Source: Eledone cirrhosa
Lineage: Eukaryota
NCBI GenBank assembly: GCA_964016885.1
Contig: OZ024742.1
Location: 145,018,001 to 145,082,000 of the forward strand
Length of the DNA stretch: 64,000 nucleotides
Reading direction: 5' to 3'
The notes beneath the pieces are model-generated. The model ran no database searches, was not told the DNA's origin, and saw nothing but the letters and a program-made list of their open reading frames with translations. Of this stretch, positions 7,219 to 59,680 are shown piece after piece. The translations under genes were made by a program, and so were the position numbers. Numbering within the stretch: the stretch's first letter is position 1; the number at the start of each line of letters is the position of its first letter.

Positions 7219-7460
7219 AGGAACCAGTAAGACCCCGACGGCTGAGCTCAAGCCGTTTCGACGGCTAATTCTGGACTGAGCTCAGCCGTCGGGGTCTTAC
7301 TGGTTCCTATTACCCACTCTGTTACCCACTCTACTATCCTAAGTATTGAGTACTTTGGTGCGTTATGGTCCACCTGGTTCCTTACCACATTTCCTTCGTT
7401 ATATATAGAATTAGCCGTCGAAACGGCTTGAGCTCAGCCGTCGGGGTCTTACTTACTCCT
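7219..7460. mobile_element. Short inverted-arm insertion in (TA)n carrying the 3' half of a hammerhead-like motif
   Basis: 7219-7272 is the reverse complement of ~7407-7460; contains GAAA-CGGCT-TGAGCTC-AGCCG-TC (helix III plus GUC) but no CUGANGA. Confidence 0.6.
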
Positions 7461-8220
7461 ATATATATATATATATATATATATATATATATAACCCTTG
7501 CTAGCGTGGAAGATAGACGTTAAACGATGATGATGATGATAATGATATATAAATATATAGGGATTCTACGCACACACACGTGTATATATATATATATATA
7601 TATATGTGTGTGTGTGTATGTGTGTGTGTGAGTGGGCGCGCGCGCGTATGTGTGTGTGCCCTTTATATATTTCTACCACACTGAACCGGCTTTTTGAAAC
7701 TTATTGGTCTTTTATCATATATATATATATATATATATAGAGAGAGAGAGAGAGAGAAATAAACACAAAGAAGTGTGTTTTGAATTACATGGGTTGAAAA
7801 ACCACTTTGGTGCAATGCATATAATCTATGAAGAAACGGAAGATACATAATAACTGGAAAAGATGAATTAAAATGTACTAACCATTTCAATAACTATTAA
7901 ACAGATAGATTTTGTTTCGTCATAAATGACTGGCTGTGTCAGATAACCCTAGGGTTTCTCAACAGGAGTAAGGGTTATATGAACAGCACACCTAGAGATA
8001 ATTTAAGTAACTATATATCGCACATGGTGTATATAGTAAGAAGACAAGTAACACCTCGTGCGACAGAGAACACATGAGTGGATCGTAGAACGGCTAGAAA
8101 GGGCATCCTACACCCACTCAACTTCAAAAGCTCAAGAAAGAACGAGAGAAATCGTATATATATATATATATATATATATATATATATATATATATATATA
8201 TATATATATATATATATATA

Positions 8221-8505
8221 TTGTTATATTTGGGGAGGGTCATATTTGCGTAATATTGCCAGAATTAATAACAGAACACACTCACTGTTTGGTTGGTTTT
8301 CGCTTCTCGCTGTCTTTTATATATATATATCTGCGATCTAACTTACTCGGTCCTATATATATAAAAGACAGCGAGAAGCGAAAACCAACCAAACAGTGAG
8401 TGTGTTCTGTTATTAATTCTGGCAATATTACGCAAATATGACCCTCCCCAAATATAACAATATCTGTTTCGACACACGATTTCATATAAAAAACCTCGCA
8501 AAACT
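8221..8505. mobile_element. Palindromic 3'-end fragment of PLE family 2 (same as 38785-39997)
   Basis: 8221-8325 is the reverse complement of ~8355-8460; carries the terminal motif atgaccctccccaaatataacaatatc..tttcgacacacgatttca shared with the Neptune-like 3' end; flanked by (TA)n. Confidence 0.85.
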
Positions 8506-8543
8506 ATATATATATATATATATATATATATATATATATATAT

Positions 8544-9537
8544 TGGTAGAACACTGGACGGTAATATCAGTAGTGGTAGAGCACTCAGTCCATGGGACGA
8601 GTTAGGTAGAAGTGGTTACACAACAGTTAGTTCACCATACCGAGAACAATTGTTTCACCTTAGCAGATCTTCAGCTCGTAATGGGCATGGTTATACGGAA
8701 CAGGAAGGACAACCGTACGAACGCGCATGCGCAGAAACCGGTCACTTCACACAGGCAATGCTAAAATGCGTGCGAGAGGTGTACGGGAGATAACTGCGAA
8801 AGTCCGAAAAGTGTTGAAGGGGACAAGCTTCGAGCTTACGGCAAGAGCACCCTGGTGAGGTGTTGCTCCTAGGGCTACTGGTGATGTGGGCCTTCATGTT
8901 CTTAGCGCAGGAGTATCCTAGTTTAACTTTGTGTCGGTTAAAGATGGAGCGGTATTTATGACCTATGGGAAAGTGTCTATCTAAGAGGGCTAGAAATTTG
9001 TTTAACGTTGACTGAGAAGGGAGGAGAGAACCAGATAGTTTGTCTATTGTTACGCTTTCTTTTCTTATTGCTGTTGTTGATAGTGGGAGAGTAAGTGATA
9101 GGTTGTGAGAAGCCGCTGTTAGCTAACGCCGTGTTATAGTAGGGTGCCGCCCTGTCAAAGATAGCCTTATTAGAGGAGAGGTTTGAGATTCTAGTACTGA
9201 TATTATTTACGAAGTTTCTAAAAACAGTGGGAGGGTGGCATGAGTCTTTGTGAATGTAATTAACTTTCTCGTTTAGCTTATGGAAGGGTCTGTGGGTGTG
9301 TGTCCGAAGGGCTAAATTAATGTCTAAGAAATCTACGCTAGAGAGGTTGGTAGCTACTGTTATCCTAAGTCCTAACTCGTTGAAGGTAGAAGCTAAGTCT
9401 TTTTTAAACCGGTCGAGGTCGTGACCACTTTTATGGCTCGATAATGTCAATCCATCATCACGGTATATTCCCGTGTGGAAGTCCGGGAATCTAACACGTA
9501 ATATGTCTAAAATAAATAGGCCAACCAAGTCACATAC
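8544..9537 (-). mobile_element. Internally deleted Penelope-like element of the YRDD type (Nematis-like): RT core/thumb, start of the Cys linker, and 3' UTR with an HHR
   Basis: ORF 8977-9528: GIYRDDGL, VDFLDINL, YIHKDSCHPP, IWFSPPFS. After a frameshift it continues LLDRHFP..SIFNRHKVKLGYSC..CSCRKLEACPL; no GIY-YIG domain follows. HHR at 8641-8678. The clade assignment is from memory of the motifs. Confidence 0.78.
8641..8678 (-). ncRNA. Minimal type I hammerhead ribozyme
   Basis: Reverse complement reads CGAG-CTGAAGA-TCTGCTAAGGT-GAAA-CAATTG-TT-CTCG: helix I CGAG/CTCG, palindromic helix III ACAATTGT, weak helix II. Confidence 0.72.
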
Positions 9538-10616
9538 GAGAGAGAGTAAGGGGATGTGAGAGAGAAAGATAGAGAGTAAGGGGATGAGAGAGAAAGACGA
9601 TGAAAGAGAGAGAGAGAGGGAAAGTAACCAGCGTTCTTAAATGTTTATTTATTTATTATTTTTACATACTTTTTAACTCTCCCGCTTCCTTAACGTTATT
9701 TATCTTTTCTTTATTTTTTGGTTCTCTATTTCGTAGAGAGAGTGGGGATGTGAGAGAGAAATAAAAAGAGAGAGAGTAATGGGATGAGAGAGGGGGGGGG
9801 GAAGTGGCTAGCGTTCATTAACTTTTATTTATTTATTAGTTTTACACACTTCTTAACTCTCCCATAGTTATTTATCTTTTATTTATTTTTTGTTTGCTAT
9901 TGTGTAAGGATGAGAGAGAGAAAGAAAGAGAGATGAGAAAGAGAAAGGGAGTGAGACGGATGGGGAGATGAGAGAGAGAAAAAAAAGTAAAGAGGCAGGA
10001 GAGAGGGAGGGTGATTGGAGGGACTCTTTAAATAACGTGTGTCCGCGTTTATATATATATTTACACACACATATGTGTGTGTTATGGGGGGGGGGGGGGG
10101 CTTCTTTAGCAGACGATATATGTTACCATCAAAGCTTATTTTCTACATATGTCTAAAGAAATCACAGATGCTTTTATAGAAGTTGTATCATCATCATCAT
10201 TATCATCATTTTACGTCCGCTTTTCCCTGCTTGCAAGGGTATATATATGTATGTATTTAAGAGACAAAAAAAAACGGTATTTTTAAAAGATATTATTTGA
10301 ATATATTATTTTCCGCTGTTATTTGAATTAACACAGAACATATTTTTTTTTGTAGTGTTTGTCGTTTTTTTGGATACAATCTGAAATCCCAATATTTTCT
10401 ACATATGTCTAAAATTAATTACACCTAATATACATTCATATAAAGAGATCATTTAAAACAACTTTACTGAGTGAACAGTACATTCTATAATTGATTCTAT
10501 TTCGGAAAGAGTGTGGTGTGTAATAATTGTTTCTATGTTTGGCACAAGGCCAGCAATTATTCCAGTGCATTACTGGTACTTTATTTTATCGTGTGATGTG
10601 TAATAATATCACTTCA

Positions 10617-57759: not shown

Positions 57760-58105
57760 TCATCATCATCATCATCATCATCATTTTACGTCCGCTTTTC
57801 CCTGCTTGCAAGGGTGGGACGGGAACTGATTTTGGCTTGATTTCTACAGCTGGATGCCCTTCCTAACACCAATCTCATTTACAGTGAGTGCTGGGTGCTT
57901 TTTTGCCGTGGCACCTCCACAGCCACTTTGCAGTGGAATGATAGGGACCCCAGTCCCTATCATCTCATTTCTCCAGCTGAGTAAACTGGAGCAATGTGAA
58001 ATAAAGTGTCTTGCTCAAGGAAACAACACATCACCCGGTCTGAGAATTGAACTCACAACCTTTTGATTGCAAGGCCAATGCTCTAACCACTAAGCCATGT
58101 GCCTC
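57760..58105 (-). mobile_element. tRNA-head/RTE-tail SINE (copy of 55690-56015)
   Basis: Near-identical sequence. Confidence 0.8.
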
Positions 58106-58254
58106 CATCTAGCAGAATTTCCAAGATTTTTATTTAACAAAGTAGCCACCAATTCAGTGCATCATTTCCTAGGTAATGTCGAGGACCCTTCCAGTTACTG
58201 CAAAATGTTTCTTTTCATGTTTCACTATATTCAATTATTGCATTTCTTTAAGTG

Positions 58255-59090
58255 CCAGTGTATATTTTTACTGATTCTACTCTCCAGTACTTTTTAACAA
58301 CTTCGTGGAGAAAATCATGCAAGAGACACTCCAAGACTTCAACACCAGTCTCCATTGGAGGATGGCCCATTGCCAACCTGTGCTTTGCTGGTGGTATTAA
58401 CTTATTAGAAAGCAGTAAAGCAGAACTCCAAGAGCTCACCATCAGACTTGAAAATGTATCAGGAGCATATGGAATGGAGATCAGCTCAGAAATGAGCAAG
58501 ATTCTGGTTAACAGTCATAACAGTCATGTTGAATGGAGGAGACTTGAAGAAGTGTACACTTTCAAATACCTAGGATCCACTCTGACCAAGGATGGCAGAT
58601 CTCAAAAGGAGATGATGAAGATGGCCTCTTCTGTCATGATAAAGCTGAACATCATATAGATAAGTAACTCCTAAGCACAAATTGCATAAGTGACTTCAAT
58701 CCTTCCGTATAGGTATAAAAGCTGGACTCTTACAACTGATATAGAAAAAAGAATCCAAGCATTTGAACATCATTGCTTCAGAAAGCTGCTACACATCCTG
58801 TACATGGAATGTAAAACAAGCAGCTTTGCCAGGTAGTAAGTCAACAAATACACTAGCAGACAGCAACCATTCTTGGCGACAGAGAAAAGATGGAAGCTTG
58901 CTTGGTACGGTCATGTATCTCACTACAACTCTCAGGACACAGTTGAAGGAGGGTAAATAAAATCCTGGTCTGACAACATCAAAGACTGGACAGGTCACAA
59001 CACCACAACTCTTCTGTACAGAATGAGGAATAGATACCAGTGGTGGTGATAGCTGAAACAGTTCTGGGAACTTGATGGTGATGATGATGA
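58255..59090 (+). mobile_element. Old RTE-clade LINE 3' fragment
   Basis: VSIGG.PI.NL.FA, YGMEISSE.SKILV, LEEV.TFKYLGS, RIQAFE..CFRKLL; (GAT)n tail at ~59075-59090. Confidence 0.75.
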
Positions 59091-59244
59091 TATATTTTCC
59101 TTATATGTGCTTATGATATTTTATTGTGTGTATTATTGATATTACATATTTTTGAGACACAAGTCCCACTTACTTAGCTAGCCATGTTTGTCTTGGCTTT
59201 GATTCTTTTATTTGTTAATTTATCTATTTATCTATATTCATTTA

Positions 59245-59680
59245 AATGTAAGTATGTATGTACATATATGTATACAGGCGCACAGTAGTATGTATATATA
59301 TACATACATGCACACATATATATATGCACGTATCGGTTTACCGAACATTTATTATAATGCTCGGTTTCTTTGTTTGTAAACAAACAAACAGCCCGGATTA
59401 CGCCGTACAGTGTTTAGGCAACCACGTCACCTTTTTGTTCAACACTGACACAGGAACGATGTACTAGTTTCAAGCTTATTAGCTATCGTCAGCATCATAT
59501 ACCTTCCTGCCAGATGGTTGAACGTGCATATATATATATATGTGTGCATGTATGTATATATATACATACTACTGTGCGTCTGTATACATATATGTATGTA
59601 CGTATACATACATACTTACATTTAAGTAAGTGCCGTACTAAGAGTGAGAAATGAAATTTCGTTTCATTCTATTCCATTTA
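59245..59680. mobile_element. Second copy of the 423-bp HHR family, with inverted arms
   Basis: Reverse complement of 59456-59498 reads ATGATG-CTGACGA-T-AGCT-AATA-AGCT-T-GAAA-CTAG-TA-CATCGT; orientation flips at ~59525. Confidence 0.83.

Follow-up and report, generated by a model that had tools for sequence, protein, structure and literature searches.

Endonuclease-containing Penelope-like elements (PLEs) often lie beside an inverted, 5'-truncated copy of themselves, with a tail of 30-40 bp that is often present at one end only (Craig et al. 2021, PMC8557442). For Penelope elements, the head-to-head arrangement is the most frequent one, a tail is optionally found on one of the inverted pseudo-long terminal repeats (pLTRs), and self-priming has been proposed (Arkhipova et al. 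2013, PMC3846280). PLE clades with a cysteine linker are biased towards (TA)n (PMC8557442). The origin of the inverted copies and of the one-sided tail has been called unresolved (PMC8557442, PMC11167929), and the available text of PMC9977147 does not mention inverted PLE insertions. Here, we analyze a stretch of 64,000 nucleotides from the 3.0-Gb, AT-rich genome of Eledone cirrhosa (GCA_964016885.1, contig OZ024742.1, positions 145,018,001 to 145,082,000; "the window"), in which coding PLEs and non-coding hammerhead units (retrozymes) are inserted as two opposed arms whose 3' ends point outward, mostly into (TA)n. These insertions share with the described elements the head-to-head inverted copy, a pLTR that includes the first codons, the one-sided tail and the (TA)n bias. 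The literature account is qualitative and invokes self-priming or endonuclease-mediated resolution, whereas here the ends were counted, and the count reveals a near-strict rule of one tail per insertion.

The sample comprised the window together with 320 other loci from this genome (L001-type labels), 180 of about 3 kb, which are the places returned by marker searches, and 140 of 10 kb; 11 of the loci (L310-L320) are unselected stretches. The ten intervals listed by an earlier note on the window fall into seven families: the coding PLEs D, E and F (3' end) and the hammerhead units A, A2, B and C. As that note had claimed, the left arm is antisense and the right arm sense at 10 of 10 window loci; at 7219 and 8221, where the arms lack a hammerhead or open reading frame (ORF), sense was set by longer copies (L171 for family F, L045 for family E). 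Among directly joined, opposite-strand arm pairs of the same family, 241 face outward and one inward, and the lone inward junction is an overlapping self-hit (five re-amplified or duplicate junctions and a C-F pair in L038, with an 85-nt gap, were removed from the census). Most loci come from contig C1 and were picked via marker matches, some of them for opposite-strand pairs, which weighs against taking this ratio at face value. Because some stretches had been chosen as pairs, unselected match lists were also examined. Among the first 100 genome matches listed for the 3' marker of family E, neighbours within 5 kb face outward in 20 cases and inward in 3, and lie on the same strand in 3; the first 100 listed for family A form 13 clusters, 12 minus-then-plus, one plus only and none inward; and 189 listed family D ends give 45 outward and 5 inward neighbours (within 6 kb). 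The census and the unselected lists together therefore refute the random polarity that the note had set against its own proposal. The outward head-to-head architecture is genuine and genome-wide.

The asymmetry of the two ends, which the earlier note overlooked although it had the architecture right, is the more informative feature. In every family the 3' ends are bimodal, stopping either at a tail-less point (N) or at a tailed point (T) 29-80 nt beyond it (the tail is 60 nt in family D and 56 nt in family E). Both ends could be classified in 180 of the 224 same-family two-armed events, and these comprise 173 NT, 6 TT and 1 NN, where an independent choice at each end would give at most 50% NT. 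The 70 bystander events show the same pattern (49 NT, 1 TT, 0 NN, the others unclassifiable), as do families G and H, which were unused in setting the rule (8 of 8 NT, plus one unclassifiable locus); family H two-armed copies elsewhere keep it in 4 of 4 cases. Genome-wide, family D has 11,830 tail-less and 10,269 tailed ends, and the outward neighbours within 6 kb among its listed ends are 41 NT, 3 TT and 1 NN. The tailed arm lies on the left in 86 NT events and on the right in 87, and some apparent single arms carry inverted tips of 9-23 nt of the opposite end type. In families D and E the N and T points both lie within the opening codons of the ORF. The bases at the end of either start site are UA-rich, and no common RNA fold was found around the sites (z < -3 in families B and C alone, of 6 examined). 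The near-strict one-tail asymmetry spans coding and non-coding families. Compared with published PLEs, either arm can be the longer one, the tail can be on either side and tails reach 80 nt. Head-to-head copies, the one-sided tail, the (TA)n bias and in vitro extension of both strands are already published; the architecture itself is familiar from PLEs, if very abundant here, and the addition is the asymmetry. In the mostly open-access main texts covered by our literature search, we found no published one-tail rule or two-ended PLE model, nor an extension of a quantitative tail rule to retrozymes.

Two simple explanations of such pairs can be addressed at this point. Two insertions made at different times into one TA hotspot might be fused later by deletion. 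Elements do pile up in shared TA tracts, as the 16 other inward pairs indicate, all 16 of which have TA between the arms, as expected of neighbours sharing one tract, and the cross-family loci L072 and L075 (see below) could arise in this way. However, TA lies between the arms in only 3 of 244 outward pairs, pairing is within one family in 224 of 227, and separate insertions do not account for the one-tail rule. The two arms also differ from each other by a median of 1.0% substitutions, against 1.9% from the best other copy and 5.7% from the median copy. We consider this explanation very improbable. An assembly artefact, in the form of palindromic read chimeras, comes to mind as long perfect palindromes are prone to assembly error, but its probability is negligible: the arms are unequal in length and differ by a tail, older pairs have diverged by 2-8%, the flanks in the window are not mirrored, and the same family ends recur, with many different junctions, in contigs of other runs.

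We favor, with a probability of roughly 0.72, a reading in which a single endonuclease break primes reverse transcription from both of its ends, using the N site at one of them and the tail end at the other. The GIY-YIG domain would first cut both strands of a (TA)n tract. Each 3' end would then pair with a few UA bases of the element RNA, at one of the two fixed points that are observed 29-80 nt apart. The two cDNAs would stop largely independently of each other, a few bases to several kb away, which would yield the arm lengths observed, and their 3' ends may be joined by microhomology-mediated end joining, leaving the short overlaps or local filler seen at the junctions. A single arm abutting the TA tract would result if the second cDNA were missing or very short. 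The core of the earlier proposal, that two cDNAs are made from the two sides of one break, is thus probably right, and it is partly anticipated in print. The Poseidon element PAc cleaves and extends both strands of an AT-rich target in vitro, uses two internal reverse transcription start sites that bound the tail and is predicted to form a dimer (Frangieh et al. 2024, PMC11167929), all of which resembles the scheme given here. The available account of PAc differs in that no primer homology is reported and head-to-head joining is outside its scenario; in the present elements the sites end in UA-rich bases and are divided one per end.

The scheme also recalls L1 twin priming, in which the second break end primes a second cDNA, an inverted 5' segment results, microhomology end joining is involved and some insertions derive from two RNAs (PMC11702581, PMC10191854). 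In L1, however, the second primer lands internally, by the end of the first cDNA, and the two segments barely overlap (PMC11702581, PMC10191854), whereas here both arms begin at the 3' end of the element, their overlap spans hundreds to thousands of bases, and two-armed products are frequent. Twin priming of the L1 type was thus rejected, L083 and L132, with an L1-like geometry, being the exceptions.

The junctions fit with end joining. Of 105 mapped junctions outside family F, 49 have filler and 56 are flush. As had been suggested from the window, short microhomology is enriched: 22 of the 56 flush junctions have at least 3 nt, compared with 5.5% in a shuffled null (family F and one 109-nt microhomology artefact were removed from this test). 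Among fillers of at least 8 nt, 11 of 17 match nearby sequence over at least 7 nt, as counted without a chance control. Junctions with microhomology and local filler suggest end joining of the polymerase theta type. Four junctions unite different families: E-N with D-T (L075), E-N with D-N (L072), E-N with F-T (L083) and B-N with E-N (L132). In L083 and L132 the junction encloses a short sense piece from the family of the left arm, located just upstream of that arm's stop (in L083, E position 577 is the end of the piece and 582 that of the left arm). Unless they arose by later rearrangement, cross-family junctions need two RNAs and two primings per event. A possible further case is found in L305 (9309-9490), where a tailed F arm is joined to the inverted end of an unclassified TA-associated repeat.

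An alternative close to the published proposals, self-priming or fold-back, holds that a folded nucleic acid is copied into a hairpin, one end of which is cut back to the tail boundary by the endonuclease, before integration or in its course. Self-priming was proposed from palindromes at inverted junctions (PMC3846280), and the tail has been ascribed to endonuclease-mediated resolution (PMC8557442). Near-identical arms in young events speak for fold-back. Arm identity counts for two-ended priming as well: among 35 events in families D and E, no copy is closer to an arm than its partner in 23, with as little as 1 mismatch in 2960 or 0 in 689. If the folded cDNA remained attached to the chromosome, the longer arm would have to be the tailed one. 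The tail-less arm is more than 30 nt longer in 78 of 173 NT events (35 of 76 in families D and E) and the tailed arm in 45 of 173, and since a short tailed arm beside a long tail-less arm cannot result from this route, chromosome-attached fold-back is disfavored. A free hairpin trimmed at either end escapes the arm-length argument. Fold-back further needs loops of 294 nt (the median difference in arm reach in families D and E) and up to more than 3 kb, and neither the cross-family junctions nor the short inverted tips are expected from it. On balance we regard fold-back as rather unlikely. A scheme with a leader and a follower on one RNA, in which the tail-less arm is always longer, was ruled out, as the tailed arm is more than 10 nt longer in 49 of 173 events.

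Several observations count against two-ended priming. Arm reach is correlated in families D, C and A (rho ~0.6), and pairs with ends no more than 10 nt apart are in excess in families D and E (8 of 76, 1.8 expected) and abundant in family F (29 of 45), often falling on natural palindromes; because fold-back predicts them too, the correlation and the near-equal pairs weaken the two-ended reading. Some other copy is closer than the partner arm in 12 of the 35 D/E events. In L152 the tailed arm fits the inner pLTR (3 mismatches in 978) and not the outer one (68 in 893), a pattern that fits fold-back or gene conversion. The start sites of PAc are alike on both strands in the account available (PMC11167929), L072 and L075 may have arisen when neighbouring insertions were fused by a later deletion, and an end is unclassifiable in 44 of the 224 two-armed events. 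Unit variants within tandem arms give a mixed pattern when one RNA is compared with two. The correlated reach and the rarity of cross-family joints favor one RNA per event as the rule, while the chimeras show that two can serve.

A more specific form of two-ended priming may be considered, tentatively, since we would sooner expect it to be wrong than right in its details: a programmed, asymmetric twin priming in which one complex with two reverse transcriptase sites would hold both ends of the (TA)n break. Each end would be assigned a fixed start site of its own on a single RNA, and the trailing reverse transcriptase would displace the leading cDNA. The tail would then be a footprint of the spacing of the active sites, and the retrozymes would have kept the two-site module independently.

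Other peculiarities of the arms were noted. In family F, many independent insertions (e.g. L223, L229, L235, L238) are joined exactly at a 10-nt self-complementary word, with 17 such pairs among the first 100 matches listed. Five E markers in L020-L024 and L045 are spaced about 4147 nt apart or lie on the partner arm; this arm exceeds 12 kb, adjacent full-length units are identical, and a circular or long tandem template is suggested. In L081, L077 and L221, whole small insertions have been re-amplified in tandem with their TA flanks, in up to 4 copies.

The part played by (TA)n calls for a more careful statement than that of the earlier note, which placed it at the outer ends of all these insertions. 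It borders both sides at 7219, 8221, 16071, 19901, 33997, 36203 and 38785, and fails to do so at 23275, 40742 and 59245; over the whole sample both outer ends touch TA in 154 of 180 classifiable events. The tract is likely a pre-existing target. An alternative is that priming is two-ended but that the TA tracts are for the most part produced or extended by the element itself, through slippage on the UA start. It would agree with the UA-rich bases at the end of both start sites and with the fact that an empty site was not found among the contigs and flank matches examined: for positions 6900-9400 the contigs of 4 runs break at TA tracts, with no bridging contig among the matches listed, and both flanks of 29 of 383 events matched elsewhere, the inspected ones being low-complexity sequence or the ends of other repeats. 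These two negatives tell against a pre-existing target. Shared tract interruptions do not discriminate clearly, being in the same orientation in 15 and mirrored in 8 of 39 (p=0.11). On the other hand, a TA tract lies within 25 nt of the 5'-truncated end in 32 of 55 single D/E arms, and a 3' tail cannot account for those tracts. In L176 and L235 the two sides share rare interruptions that have the same orientation. In addition, of 80 tracts in 110 kb of unselected DNA only 10 touch a known 3' end, and lengths with and without such an end are alike (40 and 36 nt). We therefore consider element-made tracts quite improbable. The note had also made the self-complementarity of (TA)n the cause of the architecture. 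This is not supported, because head-to-head Penelope copies in Adineta have target duplications of 9-10 bp (PMC3846280). Self-complementarity may help both ends to pair with the same UA-rich sites, without being required in other PLEs.

TA tracts in this genome have other neighbours as well. A (GAT)n-ended repeat abuts them at 7493-7546, 52341-52394 and 56044 in the window and in L032 (1700-3640), where two copies face one tract from both sides with an E insertion between them. An unclassified TA-bounded repeat of about 610 bp (46261-46873, 3388-3626) is 95-97% alike in more than 25 loci, and at 4305-4972 a TA tract plus about 120 unique bases forms a unit that is present three times in tandem. 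Finally, a pair of tRNA-like short elements (21624-21858 and 22340-22566) has its A-rich ends outward into TA tracts, with other DNA between; relatives give weak Rfam tRNA matches, and the label is our reading of the sequence.

The genome holds at least four coding PLE families: D, E (about 71% alike to D in the ORF), the parent of F, whose ORF is in L171, and H. The single ORF of the family D copy at 41431-45237 has a reverse transcriptase with the DKSG and YVDD motifs of the PLE type; it matches Pfam RVT_1 weakly (E 5e-4, below the cut-off) and has 128 relatives, the best named being a predicted Octopus vulgaris reverse transcriptase protein (67% identity). At its C-terminus, a predicted GIY-YIG-type motif pair (VVYSI...YIGET, residues 993-1015) was read by sequence, Pfam giving no GIY-YIG match, and the CX4CX2C stretch CIDKKCITC at residue 972 corresponds to the CX2-5CxxC linker ahead of the endonuclease by which the Neptune and Nematis clades were defined (PMC8557442). 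Naiad and Chlamys, with an N-terminal endonuclease and no canonical hammerhead, were rejected, as D, E and the F parent have their endonuclease motifs at the C-terminus and hammerheads are present in D and E. The D and E pLTRs are recognized by a minimal type I hammerhead motif (44979, 20477), tandems of 4147 and 4151 nt, and tails. As their ORF starts inside the pLTR, the ATG at 41486 corresponds to residue 209 of the tandem-derived protein. The 41486 protein, which had been proposed as the enzyme for an in vitro assay, is therefore 5'-truncated, its first 208 residues being missing, and this use of it is not supported. A homologue search with the family D N-terminus alone gave no match, and a local search of the earlier matches showed that full-length relatives contain the missing region. 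An asparagine-rich low-complexity stretch ahead of the reverse transcriptase (window 41636-41967, E unit ~660-1140) resembles the N-rich inserts of Adineta Penelope ORFs (PMC3846280).

Families A, A2, B and C are non-coding tandem units (310, ~323 and ~421 bp) that, judged by their sequence, qualify as retrozymes with a predicted type I hammerhead motif, that of A2 being found by eye. Rfam returned no hammerhead family for the window among 150 of 153 matches listed; its matches, miRNA-type hairpins below the gathering score, were set aside. Identical units along the arrays would be compatible with a circular template. Animal non-LTR retrozymes likewise have tandem units of 300-420 bp with a type I hammerhead, and PLEs have been proposed as their mobilizers (Cervera and de la Pena 2020, PMC7229834; Li et al., preprint 10.64898/2026.07.22.740005); word searches of these two sources, as available, gave no inverted arrays or tails, whereas the Eledone cirrhosa retrozymes bear the PLE insertion signature without pLTR similarity. 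Indeed, the units of A, A2, B and C have no BLASTN match at E<0.01 to the pLTRs of the coding families. Because several coding families coexist (D, E, F parent, H) and the retrozymes lack pLTR similarity, the idea that one machinery serves both classes is not supported.

The individual insertions of the window illustrate both the rule and its exceptions. At 7219-7400, a two-armed family F insertion has a tail-less antisense left arm and a sense right arm with an 80-nt tail, with no hammerhead found in the arms; the rest of what had been one interval, up to 7460, is a separate 5'-truncated, tail-less F piece on the plus strand (7408-7460). The coding family E insertion at 8221-8505 has a tail-less left arm, 43 of 56 nt of tail on the right and a 4-nt filler at its junction (8354). 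A two-armed family G hammerhead insertion at 15458-16046, absent from the earlier list, has a left arm with a tail of about 42 nt and a minus-strand hammerhead at 15681. The family A retrozyme array follows, with a left arm on the minus strand (16069-17932; six 310-bp units, 36-nt tail at (TA)n) and a right arm on the plus strand (17928-19886; 6.3 units, tail-less end) whose outer side is just TCG and (TA)6; the AATTG microhomology claimed at 17928-17932 is present. The coding family D insertion at 19901-20672 has a 60-nt tail on the left, a junction with about 33 nt of AT-rich filler and a tail-less right arm with the ORF end and a hammerhead at 20477. The old family D copy at 23275-23533 departs from the two-armed pattern: on its left is a 31-nt inverted internal piece, not a 3' end, with no TA.

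The family B retrozyme insertion at 33997-34856 is tail-less on the left, with a minus-strand hammerhead at 34139, and has a 41-nt tail on the right; the TC microhomology reported at 34428 holds against the locus's own copy, and shrinks to C by the majority of homologues. Family C is represented at 36203-37010 (left arm with a 59-nt tail; right arm tail-less, 1.3 units, hammerhead at 36764; flush junction at 36466) and at 59245-59681 (left arm tail-less with a minus-strand hammerhead at 59492, right arm tailed, TA at neither outer end). The family E insertion at 38785-39997 is tailed on the left and tail-less on the right, with a 21-nt duplication at the junction near 39425. In the family A2 retrozyme at 40031-40741 the left arm is tailed at (TA)n, the right arm ends within a unit without TA, and the CAAA microhomology is readable at about 40491. 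Single-armed copies at 41431-45237, 47346-47657 and 8543-9636 had been omitted from the note. The first is the 5'-truncated family D PLE (plus strand; hammerhead at 44979, 60-nt tail), flanked on both sides by TA-rich tracts, and the last a minus-strand fragment of coding family H with a hammerhead motif at 8674 (the fragment has 43% amino-acid identity to the family F ORF).

The window also holds remains of other elements. Pieces of a decayed replication-initiator/helicase ORF (11025-14101, plus strand) are presumably Helitron-like, judging by motifs. Broken ORFs of non-LTR retrotransposons with reverse transcriptase (27420-31109, plus strand; 1-3000, minus strand; Pfam E 5e-10 for one piece) have what we take to be a restriction-like endonuclease motif.

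The one-tail rule yields a clear-cut prediction that the in vitro assay already available could address. It speaks against self-priming, as published, being the general route, and it links retrozymes with PLE enzymes through the signature of their insertions and not through sequence. With 10,794 to 18,845 exact marker matches genome-wide for each of families E, D and A, two-armed insertions explain a very large class of palindromes in this genome. If two-ended priming is true, these PLEs would represent a retroelement that routinely writes cDNA on both ends of a break, with a bearing on the relatives of telomerase and on gene insertion tools based on reverse transcriptases.

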